64,000 nt of DNA from Bdellovibrionota bacterium. GTDB lineage: Bacteria > Bdellovibrionota > UBA2394. The notes below the pieces were generated by a model that was not told where the DNA came from, did no database searches, and saw only the letters and a list, made by a program, of their open reading frames with translations. Location of the stretch: contig JBILFF010000001.1 of the NCBI GenBank assembly GCA_044351695.1, positions 2,400-66,399 on the forward strand, written 5' to 3'. Made by a program: the position numbers and the translations under genes. Position 1 is the first letter of the stretch. Each line of letters begins with the position of its first letter. Shown here one piece after another: positions 4,804 to 47,610 of this stretch.

Positions 4804-6459
4804 TTACCTCAATAGCTGGAAGCGACCATTGCGAACGGTAAGGACCTGCGGCTCTTTTCGAATCTGCTGCGCCTCCGAAAACATCTGCCCTGTTACCCCA
4901 TCGAATCCCGACAGGCGGCTCAAACTTTCACGCAAGCCTTCTCTAGAAACAGCTGATCGCGAGTTGCCTCGCAAAAGAGAAATCATCATCGCCCCCACAT
5001 CAAAAGCCTCGGCCGCGATCTTTGAGGGCTTGGTGCCCGTCAGCTCTTCGTAGCGGTTCACAAACAAGCGCGTTTTAAAATCTTGAGAGCTCTCAAAAAA
5101 ACTATCCGTGAAAATCAAACCCTCGGCAGAATCTTGGGCTCGCTCTAACAATTTTGGCGAATGAAAACCCGAAAGCCCCACGACCTGGACTCCGTAGATT
5201 TTTAAGAAGGGGAGGGTGGGCAGAAGATAACCCCCTGCATCTGCAAAATCAGGCACGAATAAGACTTCGAAATCCAAGACCGGATTCAAATCGTTGATGC
5301 TCTTCACACAACCCTCAAGCACCCGGTTCTTAGGACACACCTCATCGACTCGCGCACGAGGAACATCGAGTCGAGTCATCTCTTTTAGAGGATCTTTAAA
5401 GTCAGTAGTCTCTGGCGCATAAACCTTCGCATGTTTAATCTCGAGACCTTCGCGAGTGAAGGACTCTTTTGCAATCTTTGCCGCATCCCACCCATAGTCA
5501 TTCTCAGGAAACATCATCGCGACCCGTTTTGCTCCCAGATCCGTACGAATAAATTTCGCTAGACGATTGATTTGGTCGCGCAGCGTAAGAGCCGATCGAA
5601 AGCTATAACTGCCATACATGGTTAAATTTTCTCTGGGAGCGAGAGAGATGACCGGCACTTTCATCAGTTCAGCACGTTCAAACACAAATTGACTCGCTGC
5701 TGTCGTGACGGGGCCAATCACCGCCAAGACGTTTTCATCATTCACCAGTTTATTGAGGGCGGCTTGAAGGCTGTCGTTGCCCGATCCGCTATCTACAAAT
5801 ACAAACTGAAGACCCTCAGAGGCCGCGAACCCAGAGAGCGTTTGAAGCGCATCCATCACTTCTTTGCCATAATTTTTGAGCTCTCCCGTTAAGGGAATCA
5901 AAACGCCCAGCTTTCCGGAGCTCATGGTTTCAGAAGTGGTGCCCACCTGAAGCAACTCTTGCGCCTGCGCGTAGAGACCCGAATAAGGCTCATCTTGAAT
6001 CGCTTTTAAATAAGAGATCGCGCTGTCGATGGTGCTTTCGCGCAGAGCGCTGAGATAAAGATAATAATTCGCCGTATTCTTTCCGACTGCTGAACCAGCG
6101 CGCGCTAAAATTTTTTCAAGAGAGGCCCCACTCATCATCGGCTCCACAACGAAAGCCCGGAGGTCTTGCGACAACTCTCGTCCACGCTCCACACTCAAGC
6201 GATTTCGACGCTCGAAAATTTCGATCCACTGATCCAACCACAAAAAGTGCTGAATCCTCTCGTCCTCACGCTCAGAAGGATTTTCTCGGATAAATTTAAG
6301 GCCCTGCTCAAAAGCCTCAGCGCTCCCCTCACTGTTGGGACCCGCTGGTACTCCGACGGAAGCTCCGCCTGAGTCTCTCGTGGCACAAGAAAACAGAGCA
6401 AACGAGAGAAATAAAATCGACAGATGCCTTTGGCTGCAGAAATGAAAAAGTGGTCTCAC
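4804..6459 (-). CDS. lipoprotein with N-terminal helical/TPR-like region and C-terminal type-1 periplasmic binding-protein fold (LpoA-like or LivK-like)
   Basis: Lipobox (LFSCA); C-terminal half (…LGVLIPLTGELKNYGKEV…VIGPVTTAAS…) resembles PBP1 / branched-chain amino-acid-binding fold. Confidence 0.5.
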   Translation of the reverse strand: MRPLFHFCSQRHLSILFLSFALFSCATRDSGGASVGVPAGPNSEGSAEAFEQGLKFIRENPSEREDERIQHFLWLDQWIEIFERRNRLSVERGRELSQDLRAFVVEPMMSGASLEKILARAGSAVGKNTANYYLYLSALRESTIDSAISYLKAIQDEPYSGLYAQAQELLQVGTTSETMSSGKLGVLIPLTGELKNYGKEVMDALQTLSGFAASEGLQFVFVDSGSGNDSLQAALNKLVNDENVLAVIGPVTTAASQFVFERAELMKVPVISLAPRENLTMYGSYSFRSALTLRDQINRLAKFIRTDLGAKRVAMMFPENDYGWDAAKIAKESFTREGLEIKHAKVYAPETTDFKDPLKEMTRLDVPRARVDEVCPKNRVLEGCVKSINDLNPVLDFEVLFVPDFADAGGYLLPTLPFLKIYGVQVVGLSGFHSPKLLERAQDSAEGLIFTDSFFESSQDFKTRLFVNRYEELTGTKPSKIAAEAFDVGAMMISLLRGNSRSAVSREGLRESLSRLSGFDGVTGQMFSEAQQIRKEPQVLTVRNGRFQLLR

Positions 6460-12575: not shown

Positions 12576-12707
12576 AGTCTTACGGTCAAGATTGGGCTCG
12601 ATGGATCGGCTTTAGGCAGAGTCAATTTTTTGACTCGCTATAAAATTGATTAAGTCTAAGGCCTCAGTCAGATCCTGAGTGGCACAGCCTTTGCTCTTCC
12701 TCCTCTT

Positions 12708-13199
12708 GTGGTGAACTTGAGAAATTGGATTTGGGTGATCATGATCTTGGCCACTCTGAGTGTAAGCCTTAGTGCTTGTGGTGGGCCAGTGCCAGCTCAT
12801 GGTCTAGACAGTGAAGACCCTGAGCATCGGGGCACAAATGTGGGCAATACAGGAAGCATACCCCCCAAAGAAGCTGGCGCCTTTACCGCCATCTCAGCCG
12901 CGGGCGGCCACGTATTCTGCTCCTATCTAGGCGAATCACCAAGCCCCGGATTGGTTCTTTTGGGGTTCACCAACGATGATTCTTGGGAGCTCATTGCCTC
13001 AGCCCCAGCTCCTGAGACATTGATCAGCGTCCCCGAGGAGGCGACTTTTTCCTACGTGAAAATTAAATGCGAGCTGGCTCACGCCATGGGTCAGCTTAGT
13101 CTTCCGGAGCAAAGGCGCCCTCACGGAGGTGAAGAAGCACTCTGGCCTTCAGAGCAGGTGACGGCATCTCCCCCCGCTCCAGTAGTGGAGGGCCCATGA
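12708..13199 (+). CDS. hypothetical lipoprotein
   Basis: N-terminus …MILATLSVSLSACGG (signal peptide plus lipobox). Confidence 0.5.
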   Translation: MVNLRNWIWVIMILATLSVSLSACGGPVPAHGLDSEDPEHRGTNVGNTGSIPPKEAGAFTAISAAGGHVFCSYLGESPSPGLVLLGFTNDDSWELIASAPAPETLISVPEEATFSYVKIKCELAHAMGQLSLPEQRRPHGGEEALWPSEQVTASPPAPVVEGP

Positions 13200-14062
13200 G
13201 ATCTCCGGCAGAGCTCCTTCAGATGGCGCCGAGTGTGTTTGATTTTGTGGATGCGAGAGCATTCATTCGAGAGCACTTGAATTATCTTAAAACTTCTCAA
13301 AGGGGTTTTAGTTTTCGCAAGTTTAATCGTGAAATCGGCGTATCAGCTCCTGGGCATATACACATGATGTTGTCGGGCAAAATCGCGCTGACTGAGAATC
13401 TCGCTCAAAAGTTGGCGCGGGGATTTGCACTAGATAAGATTGAATTCAAAGCCTTCATGGACTTGGCTTTGCTAGAGAGTCTAGATGAGGGTGAGGTCAA
13501 AGACGATCTTAAGAGCCGAGTTTTAGACGATCGCATTCGTCGCAAAAAAACTAAACTCAAAGAGCATCAGTTTGCGTATTTCTCGAGATGGTATTACCCG
13601 GTGATTCGTGAGCTGGTGGGCTTAGCGGATTTTCGGCTGGATACGAAGTGGATTGCGCGCCGCCTTGGGGGCAAAGTCTCAGAAAAAGAAGTTGCCCAAG
13701 CACTGCAAGCGCTGTTTGCGCTGGGGATGATTCGATCCGAGGGGAGTTTGGTTGTTCAGTCTGAGTCTGTTGTGGAGACAGAAGATTTGATTCCAAGCTC
13801 TGAATTGGTGTCTGAGTTTTTGGTGGCGATGATGGATCAAGCTCAGCAGGCTCAGCGCGGGGTAGCCACCTCGCTGCGAGAGATGAGTGGAGTAACTTTG
13901 ACCGTAGACTCTGAGGACTTTGAGCAGATTAAGAGAGAGCTTACGGAGTTTAGACATTCTTTGTTTAGGCGCTTTGGCCAGGTAAAGCCTAGTCATGATC
14001 AAGTTTATCAAGTGAATCTTCAGTTGTTTCCTCTCACAACGAGTACCGATTCAAAAGATTGA
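13196..14062 (+). CDS. HTH-containing hypothetical protein, possibly TIGR02147 (Fibrobacter/Bdellovibrio paralogous family)-like
   Basis: N-terminal region (FIREHLNYLK…RGFSFRKFNREIGVSAPGHIHMMLSGK) resembles the HTH of the TIGR02147 family as I recall it; ATGA start/stop overlap with the upstream gene. Confidence 0.4.
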   Translation: MRSPAELLQMAPSVFDFVDARAFIREHLNYLKTSQRGFSFRKFNREIGVSAPGHIHMMLSGKIALTENLAQKLARGFALDKIEFKAFMDLALLESLDEGEVKDDLKSRVLDDRIRRKKTKLKEHQFAYFSRWYYPVIRELVGLADFRLDTKWIARRLGGKVSEKEVAQALQALFALGMIRSEGSLVVQSESVVETEDLIPSSELVSEFLVAMMDQAQQAQRGVATSLREMSGVTLTVDSEDFEQIKRELTEFRHSLFRRFGQVKPSHDQVYQVNLQLFPLTTSTDSKD

Positions 14063-14275
14063 TTTTCTCAAACAGTTCATGCGTCACGCTATCTAGCGAG
14101 CAAGCTCCCACGCGGTCGGCCTTGCGGTTGCCAAGGTGCTTCATGGGCATTTCAAAGACATTTTGTATGACCACTGTACATGATGAAAATTTTTGTCAGC
14201 CGTAGCTCTGCAAAAAAGTTGATGTGATTTTTTGATCGCCTTGTGGAGCTGTTCATTCTCTAAGCGCCCCTCGGT

Positions 14276-14350
14276 ACATCTCTCGCAATCTCCTCTCTGC
14301 AACACAACTCTCTCAGAGTTCACCGCCAAGTGCGCTGGGTTCGGTGGGGG
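14276..14350 (+). promoter_or_regulatory. conserved ~75-nt 5' leader element, copy A (two predicted hairpins immediately upstream of RBS GAAGGAG)
   Basis: Near-identical (about 3-4 mismatches) to 17699-17775; contains CTCTG…CAGAG and CACCG…CGGTG stem pairs followed by a G-run and an SD. Confidence 0.6.
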
Positions 14351-14370
14351 GAATGAAGAAGGAGAAATTT

Positions 14371-14538
14371 ATGAGATCAAATCATCAAATTGAAGAGATC
14401 AGCTCGAGATTGGGGATGCGTGCGTCTGTGCTGGTGGGCTTAAGTTTTGGGGCATTGATTTACGCATTATTGCCGCAGACGCTGAAGAAATCAAAAGAAA
14501 CGAGGAAAGCAACGATTCACCGAAGTGCATCGCACTGA
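14371..14538 (+). CDS. small membrane peptide (about 55 aa, one TM helix)
   Basis: ATG 8 nt after the GAAGGAGA RBS; hydrophobic segment VLVGLSFGALIYALL; stop overlaps the start of the next ORF (TGATG). Confidence 0.45.
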   Translation: MRSNHQIEEISSRLGMRASVLVGLSFGALIYALLPQTLKKSKETRKATIHRSASH

Positions 14539-15299
14539 TGCAGAAGAATGAAGGGAATATGATTAAATTCAAAGGTGAAAACGACACCCTTGAATGGGAG
14601 GGCTCTTTAATAAAAATGAACGGTAATTGTAAGGTTAAGGAGCTCGAGGTAACGGGGAAGGAGATGGGATTGAAAGTAAAAGAGCCAGGCGATCTTACAA
14701 CTTATAACTGCAATAGCTGCGAATTCACTGCTATTCCACTTAAGATCTACGACTTTTATCTCTACACGAAAGAAGTTATTCGGGCAGAGGAACGGGACAA
14801 GGAGATTATTAATCTTAAGACCGTCATTCCCCGGGACAGCAGAGAAATAATCGTTGAGACGCTGCCAAGACCAGCGGCTGGCAGTTGTGGCTGCGAAACA
14901 ACATGCAAGATAGTGCCTCCAAAAACGAAAAAGACGTACGACGATTTTTCATGGTTCTCCGTGTCTTTGGCACAAGCTGGCGTATCGCCCGTGCCGGTAC
15001 CTCTTTGTATGAAGAGTATCTATCTTGATAGCCCTCAAGCAGACGGGGTGCCATTTTTGTGGGACCCGCGGGGAACTCCTAATTTTTGCGATGAAAGGTA
15101 CTCAGAGAGTTGGAGTGACGATGAGCAGTTGTATTATGATTACTGGGTAAAGCTTCCGGTCGATGTGGGAAATCACGAAGAGGGTGACGAGCCGTCCTTA
15201 TGCAAAACGATATGGCCGAGTTACGCTTGGCTTGCTCAATCTGAAGCGACCCCCCTTCTTTACAGTGCGTTTTGGTTTAGGATTTTCGGCAAACAATAA
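14538..15299 (+). CDS. hypothetical Cys-rich protein (253 aa)
   Basis: Translationally coupled to the upstream small ORF; multiple Cys pairs (CNSC, GSCGCETTC); followed by an intrinsic terminator. Confidence 0.5.
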   Translation: MQKNEGNMIKFKGENDTLEWEGSLIKMNGNCKVKELEVTGKEMGLKVKEPGDLTTYNCNSCEFTAIPLKIYDFYLYTKEVIRAEERDKEIINLKTVIPRDSREIIVETLPRPAAGSCGCETTCKIVPPKTKKTYDDFSWFSVSLAQAGVSPVPVPLCMKSIYLDSPQADGVPFLWDPRGTPNFCDERYSESWSDDEQLYYDYWVKLPVDVGNHEEGDEPSLCKTIWPSYAWLAQSEATPLLYSAFWFRIFGKQ

Positions 15300-15356
15300 A
15301 CGCGCCCCCCCCACTTTGCCCCGATAAAACTTACCAAAATCTCTACCACGCCATAA

Positions 15357-15396
15357 CCCCGATCTTGCTTTGCAGGATCGGGGTTTTTCTTTTTCA
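15357..15396 (+). terminator. rho-independent terminator
   Basis: ccccgatc-ttgctttgcag-gatcgggg hairpin followed by TTTTTCTTTTT. Confidence 0.7.
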
Positions 15397-15528
15397 CATT
15401 CCTTAAGGAATGTTCATCGCAGGACTCCTCCTCTTATCGGGCTCACCCAAAACGAGCTTAAGCAAGCGAAGCCGCAATCAAGGATTACCCATTGACAGCT
15501 AGGGCTCTGATCAGCAGCGTGATCAAGC

Positions 15529-16146
15529 TTGAGAATGGAGGATTCGATGCCGATCACTCAGACGATCTGGAGTATTATTCAAACAAAGGCTGTAGGGCTG
15601 TTTATAGGCATTGCGATCGCGCCGGCTTGGGCTGAAGCTTCTCAGGGGCCATGTATCGCTCGACTTCAATTCTTTTTTGGTCAGTCCTCAAAGATATTTG
15701 ACGATCGGATCTCACAGCTGACCCTTGAGACAACAGAGGCGTTTAATAACCGAATGCTTGAGCTTCGTGCCTTTGTGATTGCTCATCAAGCCCTCAAGAG
15801 AGCCAATCAAGAAGCACTCAAAAGCGCTCTTTACTTTGGAGAAGACAATGAGGGATCTCAGATCAAGACTTTGCATGACCTCTTTCTAAAGCGTCAACCA
15901 AACCAAGATGAACTTAACGCATTTTCTCAAATGATTGACGATGCGCTTCAATCTCTTGTCGAGAAAAAAGAAGACGTTGTGGCACTACGCAAACACTGGG
16001 AGATGAGCGCAAGCCCAGATGATGATCTTGCAGCGCTTCGCTACTTTCTTCAGCAAGATCTCAAGCGCATTCCTCCAGGGCTGGATCGGGCGACAAGTCG
16101 CATGATGGACCTTCGGGGCCTTGCATCCAGGCTTCGTGCTCCCTAA
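15529..16146 (+). CDS. hypothetical exported protein
   Basis: Signal-peptide-like N-terminus (…AVGLFIGIAIAPAWAEAS); start may be the Met at 15547. Confidence 0.45.
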   Translation: MRMEDSMPITQTIWSIIQTKAVGLFIGIAIAPAWAEASQGPCIARLQFFFGQSSKIFDDRISQLTLETTEAFNNRMLELRAFVIAHQALKRANQEALKSALYFGEDNEGSQIKTLHDLFLKRQPNQDELNAFSQMIDDALQSLVEKKEDVVALRKHWEMSASPDDDLAALRYFLQQDLKRIPPGLDRATSRMMDLRGLASRLRAP

Positions 16147-16341
16147 GCAGGAGAAATCCCATCCCGCAAAACTTGATTGCTTCGCGGCACACTCTTCATT
16201 TCGAGAGTGCTTCGACTTTCTCCTCCAGCACACACGTGGAGCCCAGATGATTCACGGTCATAATAAGAAGCAATAACTTGTAGAACCTGACTCGCGTCGT
16301 TGAAATACGGAGACGATCGTCCAATGAGTCCGCCGATTCGA

Positions 16342-16884
16342 TCATTCGAGCTTGGAGTAGAATCTTTCGATCAGACCCAAGATACGTTCTCTCACCTTGG
16401 GTTGTAATTTTTTTACGAGCTTAAGGCGCGTTTGAAGAAGGGCTTTTTTTACAATTCCGTGTTTCAACAGAGCATTGCAATATTCAATATCTTTCGGGCG
16501 GCCCGCTGCGGCTTTTGAAATCCATAAATCGTGTGGCTCTAAGCAAAGTGCCGTAACTCCATTGGTTTGAGGGGTCAAAAACGGAACAAGGCGCGTTTTC
16601 CAACCTCCCGGCAAAATCGCAGTCTTCGGCGTTACTCCCTGAGCATAATAACCAAAAGTTTCCTGAAAAATAGAGAGCTCGCCAATCGATCCATCAATGA
16701 GGTCCGCTTTGGATCCATCTGAATCATCTAAGGCGGCAATATCCGCTTCAATCGAACGTTGGGCTTCTGGAAAATCAAATTTCACCGAACCATGAATGGC
16801 CTGACTGCCGATCACCAGTACCTTATTTGTTCCCAGGATGGCTCCAGCCGCACGAATACAATGTTCAAATTCGCCGCGCTTCAT
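16342..16884 (-). CDS. nucleotidyltransferase-fold protein (putative toxin of TA-like pair)
   Basis: GS…D.D-type minimal NTase signature (VIGSQAIHGS…DFPE…DIAALDD); 4-nt overlap with the upstream HTH gene. Confidence 0.4.
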   Translation of the reverse strand: MKRGEFEHCIRAAGAILGTNKVLVIGSQAIHGSVKFDFPEAQRSIEADIAALDDSDGSKADLIDGSIGELSIFQETFGYYAQGVTPKTAILPGGWKTRLVPFLTPQTNGVTALCLEPHDLWISKAAAGRPKDIEYCNALLKHGIVKKALLQTRLKLVKKLQPKVRERILGLIERFYSKLE

Positions 16885-17381
16885 CGAGTAGAGTCTTTAT
16901 GAAATTGTTTTAGGATTTGAAATCGCTCTTTGGGTGTAAGAACTCCAGAAAAAGGCGAAACCTGTCGCATATCACGTGAAATCATACTGGCATCAAGTAG
17001 TCTAAGGCTCAATTCTTCTGGGGGAAGCTCTAGCCAATCAATCCAAAGATCAAAAAGCAGTTTAGCGCCAGGACTCCGGCTTTTCATTTTTACGAGATTC
17101 TTTTTAGCTCGTCTGAGGATCGAATCAAAGTCATGCCTCAGGCGCTGTGTGATCACTTGATGATAGGCCAAGCTTCGACGATCCTCGCGCGTCAGAGGCG
17201 GCACATAAGATACGAAGAGCTCGCGCCCCATTGCGCGTGCCATCCGTTGCAGCGTTAAAAGCGTCGGCGATTTTTTCTCGGACTCATACTGCGCAATAGT
17301 CGCCTGAGAGGTTCCCGCCATTTTTGCAAGAACCGCCTGGGTGACTCCCACCTGAAGCCTTAATTGACGAACAATGCTCAT
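16881..17381 (-). CDS. XRE-family helix-turn-helix protein (putative antitoxin / transcriptional regulator)
   Basis: N-terminal VGVTQAVLAKMAGTSQATIAQYESEKKSPTLLTLQRMARAMG is a classic Cro/C1-type HTH. Confidence 0.6.
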   Translation of the reverse strand: MSIVRQLRLQVGVTQAVLAKMAGTSQATIAQYESEKKSPTLLTLQRMARAMGRELFVSYVPPLTREDRRSLAYHQVITQRLRHDFDSILRRAKKNLVKMKSRSPGAKLLFDLWIDWLELPPEELSLRLLDASMISRDMRQVSPFSGVLTPKERFQILKQFHKDSTR

Positions 17382-17387
17382 AAATCA

Positions 17388-17411
17388 AATTATATCTGAT
17401 CGGATATAATT
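17388..17411. promoter_or_regulatory. perfect 9-bp inverted repeat (AATTATATC-n6-GATATAATT), putative operator
   Basis: Located 7 nt upstream of the XRE-HTH gene start, overlapping a TATAAT-like box. Confidence 0.5.
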
Positions 17412-17698
17412 GTCAAAATGGGTATTGACTAGAGAATAGGCGGAACAAAGGCCATTTTTTCGAACCCCCGGGTCCCGCTTTTGGGTCGGAAAGGGTCGGC
17501 GAGAGTTTCACCACCGAACATTGATCGAGAAGCTTGCGTAAAGGCTCTCGTCATCGGGTTGGACTGCTCAGCACCACGAGTACGCATTTTTTTTAAAGTG
17601 CCCCAGCGTAAAGCGCTACTCTTTGGTATCTGCTTAGCGGCGGTAACCACCCCAGCCTTTTAAAAATCTCTGAGATTTCAGCAGTACCCAATGCTGGC

Positions 17699-17775
17699 AC
17701 ATCTCTTGCAACCTCCTCTCTGCAACACAACCCTCTCAGAGTTCACCGCCAAGTGCGCTGGGTTCGGTGGGGGAG
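17699..17775 (+). promoter_or_regulatory. conserved ~75-nt 5' leader element, copy B
   Basis: Near-identical to 14276-14350; followed by GAAGGAGAGG and a GTG start. Confidence 0.6.
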
Positions 17776-17795
17776 GTGTTGAAGGAGAGGCGCCC

Positions 17796-18305
17796 GTGAT
17801 TTTAAATCATCTGCAAAAAGGCATCAAAAAGTTCGTCACTGTAGTGGCTGTGTCGACAATACTGATTACGCAATCTAGCTGTAACGAAGCCTGTAAAGTA
17901 GCAGCGCTACTGGCGAACCTTTGTTTTGGACTCGCCCTTCCAGCTTTCTGGTGGCTACCAGTAGGACCTGGAGTAGTCGTCGACCCCGCGTGCCGAGCAC
18001 TTGTAGACGGACTTAACCACACAGCTGCGCTCAACGCCTCACCCGCCGATGTGGCCGCTTTGGTGCTGGATGGTGCGCCTAGTGAGGATGATTTAGAGAC
18101 TGCGGCAGGGCTCACTGCTGTCAATCGCGCCGATGGCAAGAGTTGCGATGGGCCCTGTGATCCGGAGAAATGCTGTGTCGGCCTTAAAGATGCGCGAAAC
18201 AAGTGCCGTGGGCTACCTGGTGGGGTAAATCCGGTCCATGGTCTGAGTCCGAAAGAGGCCTGCGAAAAGGATCTGGGTCATCTCATTCAGGAACACTGCG
18301 ACTAA
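17796..18305 (+). CDS. hypothetical Cys-rich lipoprotein (about 169 aa)
   Basis: GTG start 6 nt after the RBS; N-terminus MILNHLQKGIKKFVTVVAVSTILITQSSC (lipoprotein signal); Cys-rich C-terminus (CDGPCDPEKCC…). Confidence 0.5.
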   Translation: MILNHLQKGIKKFVTVVAVSTILITQSSCNEACKVAALLANLCFGLALPAFWWLPVGPGVVVDPACRALVDGLNHTAALNASPADVAALVLDGAPSEDDLETAAGLTAVNRADGKSCDGPCDPEKCCVGLKDARNKCRGLPGGVNPVHGLSPKEACEKDLGHLIQEHCD

Positions 18306-46070: not shown

Positions 46071-46449
46071 ATATATAGATATTTTGTTTAGTAGCGCGAT
46101 CACCCTGACTCGAGACCGCGTATCGACACCATGCACTAAAGGGGTTGGGCTCATTCGATCACTACAAACCAGCAACAAAGGTGCCAAAAAATGTCACTCT
46201 GCGCTGTGAATAAGCATCCACAGGGCCTCTAAAAACCCATGAATTTAAGGTGCTTAGCTCGGGCTCTCTCTGCACAGGCGCACCCCTAGGGCCCGGACAT
46301 GCCCTCTACGCAAAGTGCTGCATAGCCAAAGACGATCCCCTGCGAGGCAAGCGGGTCTCAAGCCTGCGTCTAAAAACAGCCCCCACCTACCAAAACAAGC
46401 CCAGCCCAAAATAAATTACGTTTTATTTTGGTCTAGACCATTATAAAAT

Positions 46450-47610
46450 GTGGTTTATAATGGCCGGGTGTTAGAACGACTCATCCAGCACCCTGTTCAG
46501 CAGGATCTTTTGAAAAAGATTGTTTTTATCTCGGGCCCTCGGCAATGCGGAAAGACCACTCTTGCTCAAGAGCTCATCCGAACGAGCAAAGACTCGGGCC
46601 TATACTTAAACTGGGATGACCCTAAGGATCGCCTGCGCATTATCAGGCGAGACTGGGATGACTCACAAAGGCTCATTGTATTGGATGAAATTCATAAGAA
46701 TAAAAAATGGAAGAATTTTGTTAAAGGCACCTACGACACTCAAAAAACGAAGCACTCTTTTTTAGTCACCGGAAGCGCCCGACTCGACCTCTACCGAAAA
46801 GGCCAAGACTCGCTCATGGGTCGCTACCACCATTGGCGACTTCACCCCATGGGCCTTGACGAACACCCTCAATCGATGAGCCCCAAAGAAGCGCTTCGGC
46901 GACTGCTGCGGGTAGGAGGATTTCCGGAACCCTTTCTTGACGGAGGAGAAACAGTAGCCCGTCGATGGCGGCTTGCTCGACGCGAAAATATTTTTAGATC
47001 GGACATTCAGAGCATTCAAAATGTGGGCGAAATTACAAAACTCGAGCTTTGTTTTGACCTGCTTCGGTCTCGAGTGGGCTCCCCGATATCCTATAAAAGT
47101 TTGCATGAAGATCTCGACGTATCGGCTCCTACCGTTAAGGCCTGGACTGAACTTTTGAGCCTCAGCTACGCCAGCTTTATTGTTCGCCCCTACGCAAAAA
47201 TGGAGCGCTCCATCAAGAAGGCGCCAAAGATCTACTTTTTCGACAACGCCGATGTAGATGGCGACGAAGGCGCTGTTTTTGAAAACTTGGTGGCCAACCA
47301 CTTACTCAAAAAAATAAATTATCTTCAAGACAAGACGGGCCACGCTTACGATCTCTGTTATCTTAGAGACAAAGAGGGCCACGAAGTAGACTTTGTGATT
47401 TTGAAAGACCGAAAGCCCCTTGAATTGATCGAAGCCAAACTCTCCGACACCAACGATTACAAAAACCTGCAGTACTATGCGGAGAGGTTAAAGCCCGAGC
47501 GAGCTGTTTTGTTGGTGGCTCAACCTAATCGATCACTCTGGAAACGCGGCCGCATGGAATGCCTCTCGGTTTTCGATTACTTTGCGCCAGGCAAAGCGGC
47601 TGCGGCCTGA
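46450..47610 (+). CDS. AAA-family ATPase (DUF4143 / COG1373-type)
   Basis: Walker A GPRQCGKTT near the N-terminus; architecture typical of the widespread ATPase with a C-terminal DUF4143. Confidence 0.7.
   Translation: MVYNGRVLERLIQHPVQQDLLKKIVFISGPRQCGKTTLAQELIRTSKDSGLYLNWDDPKDRLRIIRRDWDDSQRLIVLDEIHKNKKWKNFVKGTYDTQKTKHSFLVTGSARLDLYRKGQDSLMGRYHHWRLHPMGLDEHPQSMSPKEALRRLLRVGGFPEPFLDGGETVARRWRLARRENIFRSDIQSIQNVGEITKLELCFDLLRSRVGSPISYKSLHEDLDVSAPTVKAWTELLSLSYASFIVRPYAKMERSIKKAPKIYFFDNADVDGDEGAVFENLVANHLLKKINYLQDKTGHAYDLCYLRDKEGHEVDFVILKDRKPLELIEAKLSDTNDYKNLQYYAERLKPERAVLLVAQPNRSLWKRGRMECLSVFDYFAPGKAAAA

Follow-up and report, generated by a model that had tools for sequence, protein, structure and literature searches.

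In a 64,000-nucleotide stretch of the genome of a Bdellovibrionota bacterium (GenBank assembly GCA_044351695.1, contig JBILFF010000001.1, positions 2,400 to 66,399 of the forward strand; hereafter the window, numbered from its first letter), a 93-nt sequence is found twice, at 14273-14365 (copy 1) and 17696-17788 (copy 2), both on the forward strand. The element is probably a module made of a sigma-54 promoter, an untranslated leader and a ribosome-binding site, which is shared by unrelated exported-protein genes. In a repeat search, the two copies, which are 3.4 kb apart and 90% identical, were the sole direct-repeat family of the window. With copy 1 as the repeat reference, copies 1 and 2 scored 98 and 84 bits with nhmmer and 97.9 and 82.8 bits with a covariance model. 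No third copy was found in the 64 kb by low-stringency blastn, by the nhmmer profile or by the covariance model. The initial annotation had described a near-identical element of about 75 nt with three to four mismatches, and indeed 14276-14350 and 17699-17773 differ at 3 of 75 nt (at 14284, 14289, and 14309). A 37-nt core, CAGAGTTCACCGCCAAGTGCGCTGGGTTCGGTGGGGG, is identical in the two copies and was matched in none of 100 shuffles. The similarity begins at the GG of GGTACATC (preceded by C) in copy 1 and of GGCACATC (preceded by T) in copy 2, and it stops at the Shine-Dalgarno (SD) sequence GAAGGAGA; the copies differ 5′ of the GG and 3′ of GAAGGAGA. The flanks and the downstream genes had been called unrelated, which was borne out by sequence comparison and by a comparison of the downstream proteins, which showed no mutual similarity. 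A G-run followed by GAAGGAGA, annotated as a GAAGGAG-type SD, is present in both copies. The repeat is not part of a larger duplicated segment with coding sequence.

The 5′ edge of the module is most likely a sigma-54-type promoter, judging from its −24/−12 boxes. The sequence TGGCACATCTCTTGCA at 17695-17710 (+) of copy 2 matches the consensus TGGCAC-N5-TTGCW exactly, while CGGTACATCTCTCGCA at 14272-14287 (+) of copy 1, with GG at 14273-14274 and GC at 14285-14286, is a weak match with 3 mismatches. The window has three exact matches to this consensus against 0.11 expected, and no shuffle had three. Each of the three sites, 12680(+), 17695(+), and 46186(−), is correctly oriented before exported-protein or lipoprotein genes: the first (12680-12695, outside the repeat) precedes an operon of a lipoprotein gene and a DUF4423 gene, the second precedes the lipoprotein gene of copy 2, and the third precedes another lipoprotein gene. 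The spacing pattern GG-N10-GC is kept in 7 of 7 full-module versions from the window and from related genomes (six aligned leaders, plus that of L012 with TGGCACACCTCTCGCA). Here, the L numbers denote contigs of cargo-protein homologs fetched from related assemblies; these contigs are short and metagenomic. GG-N10-GC is invariant although L008, the most divergent version, has a promoter segment only 45-60% identical to the others, and it is also found at two promoter-only loci, L011:1495 and L012:5586. The boxes lie about 100 nt 5′ of the start codons. No sigma-70-like site was found on the forward strand next to either copy, nor in L005, L008, and L009. Since L005 and L008 have a terminator-like hairpin between the upstream gene and the module, with no sigma-70-like site after it, the promoter must lie inside the module. 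One of the options in the initial annotation, a co-regulated promoter module, is supported by the 5′ edge at the −24 GG, the 3′ edge at the SD, the invariant GG-N10-GC, and an upstream element at copy 2.

At sigma-54 promoters, transcription starts 12 nt after the C of the −12 box. By this rule, the transcription starts are predicted at 14298 for copy 1 and at 17721 for copy 2 (both on the forward strand, ±2 nt). Sigma-54 boxes of another arrangement were found about 13-14 nt before the start codons of lipoprotein (+DUF4423) operons, at 12680-12695 (+) in the window, L008:4644-4659, and L009:3322-3337. With a predicted start only 2-3 nt before the codon, these look like promoters of leaderless sigma-54 transcripts. 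About 220 nt from the 46186(−) site, there is a 40-nt imperfect palindrome (46401-46468) which is 78% complementary and has overlapping arms.

Copy 2 alone has a conserved upstream element (17630-17694, +), a candidate enhancer or operator. Its motif GGTAACCACCCCAGCCTTTTAAAAA at 17642-17666 (GGTAACCACC...AAAA) is placed exactly 53 nt 5′ of the −24 box and at about −79 relative to the predicted start; an A-tract lies between the site and the promoter. A degenerate palindrome, TTAGC-N3-GGTAA (17634-17646), precedes the motif. The same motif was found at the same 53-nt spacing before the sigma-54-like boxes at L011:1495, L012:5586, and L012:5887, and in L011 and L012 it belongs to a TTACC-N5-GGTAA palindrome. 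The upstream stretch of copy 2 shares 62% identity with that of L012 and only 20% with that of copy 1. The element was found neither at copy 1 nor at the module copies preceded by a TetR-like gene (context B, below). In its position and spacing, the site of copy 2 resembles an enhancer-type site of a sigma-54 promoter and is a candidate for one. A separate observation concerns L012:5533-5700, which carries a second sigma-54-like promoter (TGGCATGATTCTGGCA at 5586) with a GGTAACC element 53 nt 5′ of it. This promoter is followed by a C/A-rich stretch of about 90 nt and then by a strong terminator (GCCCCCTGATGC..GGATCAGGGGGC and a T-run), with no convincing open reading frame (ORF). The locus may encode a sigma-54-dependent small RNA, for which it is a candidate.

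Is the module found outside the window? The closest named genomes are metagenome-assembled genomes of Bacteriovoracaceae, and the initial annotation had reasoned that an element absent from every other genome or locus would be a chance local duplication. The module is present in other genomes and loci. The seven full-module versions are copies 1 and 2 of the window, L005 (=L006), L007, L008, L009/L010, and L012/L013; they scored 66-101 bits with the profile and 42-100 bits with the covariance model. All seven retain the GG-N10-GC, the G-run, GAAGGAGA, and the start codon. The genes behind the module differ. In L005, it precedes the gene of P0003, a protein 66% identical to P, the copy-1 cargo of the window; in L007, L008, and L009/L010, it precedes the gene of an exported protein X, which is unrelated to P; and in L012/L013, it precedes the gene of P7, which is only 28% identical to P0003. 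Together with the 169-aa lipoprotein of copy 2, four unrelated cargos follow the module (P, the X operon, lipoprotein-169, and P7), and at least three different upstream contexts precede it. Most likely, the module is a small family in one Bacteriovoracaceae clade, where it would drive orphan exported-protein genes near DUF4423 genes. Searches for short strings gave little: a 22-mer of the core had no exact match in species-representative genomes, and two patterns had none in viral contigs. A 20-mer had one match in JGI metagenome contigs, in a high-GC contig with unlike flanks, which was taken as a chance match.

The versions of the module are mosaics. On the upstream side, two contexts are found repeatedly. 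Context A consists of a DUF4423 gene (the window and L009 genes are 75% identical), and context B of a TetR-like gene with a 161-aa gene (L005, L007, and L008). All four combinations of context and cargo, namely A-P, A-X, B-P, and B-X, were seen. L005 and L007 share 98-99% identity as far as the G-run, and directly after the ATG their sequences are unrelated. Copy 1 and L009 are 95% identical in the promoter and 93% identical from the G-run to the ATG but only 50-74% identical in the middle, and the middle of L009 matches that of L005 (87-100%), which gives mosaic segments. Within the window, the transcribed segments of copies 1 and 2 before the G-run are 96-100% identical. In contrast, the identity to the cross-genome counterparts is 47-79% in most segments, both for copy 1 versus L009 (same upstream gene) and for copy 1 versus L005 (same cargo). 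This likeness within the genome above that between genomes points to gene conversion. On the simplest reading, two older paralogous modules had a tract of about 93 nt, from the −24 box to the SD, homogenised in this way; such conversion would account for the sharp edges of identity as well as for an identity higher than that to the cross-genome counterparts.

A simpler explanation would be a recent local duplication of 93 nt which came to lie before two genes by chance. The short distance of 3.4 kb and the 90-96% identity of the copies would suit it, as would the poor sampling of the clade, which allows few comparisons. I consider it very improbable, because the edges fall exactly on the −24 GG and the SD, because the module is kept before a cargo as distant as P7, at only 28% identity to P0003, and because the upstream element of copy 2, which has no counterpart in copy 1, is common to distant relatives at identical spacing. 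Since this element is shared with distant relatives, the copy-2 locus was presumably a module already before it came to resemble copy 1. It was also considered whether the copies are a mobile element of the kind of miniature inverted-repeat transposable elements or repetitive extragenic palindromes. This was rejected by the copy number (two in 64 kb, and one each in two matching species-representative genomes), by the fixed orientation before a start codon, and by the terminal repeats, none of which, inverted at the ends or direct in the flanks, were found around the copies.

The mosaic pattern allows a further reading, in which the leader on the 5′ side and a terminator on the 3′ side are homology arms for the swapping of orphan secreted-protein genes between loci or strains, and in which the similarity of the leaders is kept up because the leader is a recombination substrate. 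All four combinations of the two contexts and two cargos would be expected from such exchange, and so would the segment-wise mosaicism of the leaders and the identity of L005 and L007, which decays at the G-run and is gone right after the ATG. Moreover, the same hairpin, CCCCGATC..GATCGGGG, closes the P unit in the window (15355-15385, an intrinsic terminator on the forward strand with a 14-bp stem and a T-run) and in L005 (4113-4139), and it follows the X operon in L009 (3198-3226); this shared terminator hints that both ends of the unit recombine. However, the X operon of L008 has a different hairpin in otherwise homologous sequence, no recombinase or integrase was found nearby in the gene list, and only seven short contigs carry the comparison. 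The pattern would equally arise, with no dedicated system, from ordinary homologous recombination between paralogous promoters. I regard this reading as tentative and on balance doubtful.

Returning to the proposed promoter and leader, the predicted starts give a 5′ untranslated region (UTR) of about 73 nt (~75) which ends in GAAGGAGA. This SD sequence, at 14358-14365 in copy 1 and 17781-17788 in copy 2 (both +), is invariant in 7 of 7 full-module versions. It is followed by an ATG at 14371 in copy 1, where an in-frame ATG lies upstream at 14353, and by a GTG start at 17796 in copy 2. A consensus stem-loop was derived from RNAalifold on six sequences and from the covariance-model alignment of seven. 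It spans 14308-14349 in copy 1 (RNAalifold) and 17731-17772 in copy 2 (covariance-model alignment), both on the forward strand; a CUCU.UC arm pairs with GG.GGGG, enclosing two inner helices, and in copy 2 the structure is within the minimum-free-energy fold. Of the alignment cells in the stem-loop, 93-94% are paired, versus 39-60% in slid controls, and there are 4 compensatory pairs versus 0-1. In L005, L007, L008, and L009, the stem-loop is the minimum-free-energy fold, with z-scores from −1.8 to −3.1. A conserved 5′ UTR stem-loop is thereby moderately supported by modelling; its role, if it forms, would most likely be mRNA stabilisation or the modulation of access to the SD. The two hairpins in the initial annotation, CUCUG…CAGAG and CACCG…CGGUG, are not supported: both are possible on paper, the folding z-scores of the window copies are −0.26 to −1.5, neither hairpin is conserved in relatives such as the L005-type leaders, and the CUCUG arm overlaps the predicted transcription start.

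A structured cis-regulatory RNA had also been put forward, and one may ask whether the element is primarily a riboswitch or a protein- or small-RNA-binding leader which controls the translation of the cargo, with the promoter resemblance being secondary. The consensus stem-loop with some compensatory changes would fit. The CU-rich 5′ arm could pair with the G-run or the SD, the minimum-free-energy fold of copy 1 pairs it with the SD, and two GGA motifs near the SD read like CsrA sites. Nevertheless, the search of Rfam which had been proposed found no family in the window at gathering thresholds, and in 14100-18000 nothing relevant even at E≤10. Between lineages, the loop and inner stem are the least conserved segment (47-59% identity), the element has no conserved unpaired core of the type found in ligand-binding RNAs, and the folds of the window copies do not surpass those of shuffles. 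Conservation is highest in the columns of the promoter boxes and the SD. I therefore judge an RNA of this kind to be quite unlikely as the identity of the element. A riboswitch in particular is not supported, given the lack of an Rfam match, the ordinary fold energies and the variable centre, while the modest conserved stem-loop leaves some room for an RNA-level function of the leader.

One such added function, which would not be an alternative identity, was considered for the CT-rich run CTCCTCTCT between −12 and +1. In sigma-54 promoters of Escherichia coli, runs of this kind at this position are described as silencing the translation of read-through transcripts by pairing with the SD (Levy et al., bioRxiv 10.1101/086108). 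All leaders of the module are CT-rich in this segment. When read-through RNAs were modelled, the SD was paired with positions −2 to −7 in 5 of 6 leaders, and its probability of being unpaired dropped from 0.24-0.83 to 0.08-0.35. When the 11-nt CT-rich segment was replaced by random window sequence, however, the SD was equally sequestered in 5 of 6 leaders; copy 1 alone differed (fraction 0.01). The run lies about 65 nt from the SD, against the published effect within 25 nt. An anti-SD insulator function of the run is not specifically supported by this modelling and seems rather unlikely.

The opposite possibility is that the repeat is translated, as an N-terminal extension or a shared leader peptide (..PLCNTTLSEFTAKCAGFGGG..). 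The initial annotation held that there was no consistent coding frame, which is correct only in its outcome: the same frame is open in both copies, and the gene call of JGI for copy 2 is a 204-aa product that takes in the repeat. The versions of the module are, however, separated by indels of 1, 2, and 4 nt, which are not multiples of three, and the coding hypothesis was rejected on this pattern. In addition, 2 of the 3 substitutions that distinguish the copies would change an amino acid, the signal peptide begins after GTG 17796, the NCBI/Logan product is the 169-aa form, and the peptide is in no other protein among 5.8 billion. A protein database queried with the ORF reading through copy 2 returned the same gene alone. 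A coding repeat is extremely improbable.

The cargo genes are orphans, with no Pfam or NCBIfam match for their proteins. The copy-1 cargo (14371-15299, +) consists of a 55-aa membrane-like ORF (14371-14538) overlapping a 253-aa ORF (14538-15299), which together correspond to one 340-aa exported protein, P0003, in L005. The 55-aa ORF ends in TGATG, which overlaps the start of the 253-aa ORF. The second frame is open from position 14394 on, and its match to P0003 begins at about 14481. The split is also present in an independent assembly (L001), and the cargo is either a pseudogene with a frameshift or a version made of two coupled genes. The P family has 4 representatives among 1.84 billion. 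The copy-2 cargo (17796-18305, +) is probably a lipoprotein; it is 169 aa long and Cys-rich, and a near-identical protein was the sole homolog found.

A gene of the DUF4423/TIGR02147 family lies directly 5′ of copy 1 (13196-14062, +; Pfam 3.8e-38, TIGR02147 8.2e-53). Genes of this family were also found within about 2 kb of the module in L008 (5275-6120), L009 (233-1114), and L012 (4561-5469), as well as beside the promoter-only locus of L011 (457-1296); beside the distant P homologs of L011 and L012, the gene is divergent. Copy 2 has no DUF4423 gene of its own and lies about 3.6 kb from the one at 13196-14062, and the L005 and L007 contigs are too short to judge the linkage. Residues 35-78 of the DUF4423 protein weakly resemble a HigA/Xre-type helix-turn-helix (HTH; E 0.2), and the protein is a possible cognate regulator. 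One may go further and suppose that the module and the terminator form a sigma-54-controlled "expression slot" for the swapping of orphan secreted-protein genes through homologous recombination, with the DUF4423/TIGR02147 neighbour as the dedicated regulator binding TTACC-N5-GGTAA; this combined proposal is speculative, and I hold it to be improbable as a whole. Between the two copies, another pair of genes was noticed, divergent from copy 2 (16342-17381, −): a DUF6036 nucleotidyltransferase-like gene and an HTH_3 (Xre) gene, with a 4-nt overlap. The pair resembles a toxin-antitoxin system. Beside it, there is a perfect sigma-70 consensus, TTGACA-16-TATAAT, at 17416-17389.

Several observations weigh against the reading of the element as a sigma-54 promoter with its leader and ribosome-binding site. 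Copy 1, with its three mismatches, is a weak match to the consensus and has no upstream element; no upstream 10-mer is common to copies 1 and 2. A motif search (GAFTGA and RpoN box) revealed no rpoN or enhancer-binding protein gene within the 64-kb window. As for the leader, the window copies, with z-scores of +0.25 and −0.03, are no more stably folded than shuffles. The stem-loop comes from about four lineages and was derived from the same sequences on which it was evaluated, and its 3′ arm is G/U-rich and pairs promiscuously. Gene conversion, for its part, is read from a handful of short metagenomic contigs. In favour of the promoter reading, Bacteriovorax marinus, a cultured relative, encodes rpoN (PMC3526173).

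The mechanism proposed here builds on what was observed, namely the repeat itself, invariant promoter-like boxes, related modules in other genomes, and the mosaic pattern. RNA polymerase with sigma-54 would bind the GG-N10-GC, and initiation would need an ATP-dependent activator, which at copy 2 probably acts from the GGTAACC/A-tract element 53 nt upstream. Transcription would start near 14298 and 17721. About 10 nt from its 5′ end, the UTR may then fold into an imperfect stem-loop, with the CU-rich arm on the G-run, and the stem-loop may stabilise the mRNA or modulate access to the adjacent GAAGGAGA.

How does the module compare with known systems? With sigma-54 (RpoN) promoters such as glnAp2, glnKp, and Pu, it shares the GG-N10-GC at its 5′ edge, one copy being an exact consensus, and the conserved element at a fixed distance upstream of copy 2, about −79 from the predicted start, is a candidate counterpart of their activator sites. 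Unlike in these promoters, copy 1 has no upstream element, and the entire transcribed leader moves with the promoter as a conserved unit. The E. coli ompA 5′ UTR is a 5′-terminal stabilising stem-loop of an exported-protein mRNA. The stem-loop of the module would likewise be near the predicted 5′ end of an envelope-protein mRNA and would precede an exposed SD; the two are not related in sequence, and a stabilising role is putative. In Borrelia burgdorferi, a conserved promoter and 5′ region is found before differing lipoprotein genes, and its copies are kept alike and reshuffled by recombination. It is the "upstream homology box" (UHB) of the ospE/ospF/elp (erp) genes, which Marconi et al. reportedly described in 1996 (J Bacteriol 178:5615, listed in PMC10016077). 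The module resembles the UHB as a shared, recombining 5′ region with mosaic segments before unrelated lipoprotein or exported-protein genes; the analogy is functional only, since the two are not homologous. The UHB is a sigma-70-type promoter/operator on multicopy cp32 prophages, while the module is chromosomal, of the sigma-54 type, and in few copies, with no prophage. The cargos of the module encode exported or cell-exterior proteins, and cell-exterior products are a functional theme reported for sigma-54 regulons, according to Francke et al. 2011 as cited in 10.1101/086108. Like the insulators of Levy et al. (10.1101/086108), the module has a CT-rich, SD-complementary run between −12 and +1, transcribed by read-through only; unlike them, the run is about 65 nt from the SD (vs ≤25 nt), and the folding control did not single it out.

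The element is non-random and looks functional, and it is a lineage-specific form of known kinds of element. No new principle is implied: promoter regions that are shared and recombine are well known, and so are sigma-54 promoters. The points of greater interest are the upstream site at a fixed distance, the DUF4423 neighbour, and the swapping of cargos. The homogenisation within a genome, combined with cargo swapping, makes the module a clean small example of the concerted evolution of regulatory DNA. Bacteriovoracaceae are obligate predators of bacteria whose regulation is almost unstudied and most of whose exported proteins are orphans. The promoter, the candidate enhancer site, and the leader together define a testable regulon and give a handle on co-regulated genes that may act on prey or at the cell surface. 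DUF4423/TIGR02147 is a family with no known function at present, and the linkage of its genes to the module suggests a role for it. If the expression-slot reading were true, it would give the first function for DUF4423/TIGR02147 and a mechanism for rapid turnover of the predator secretome.

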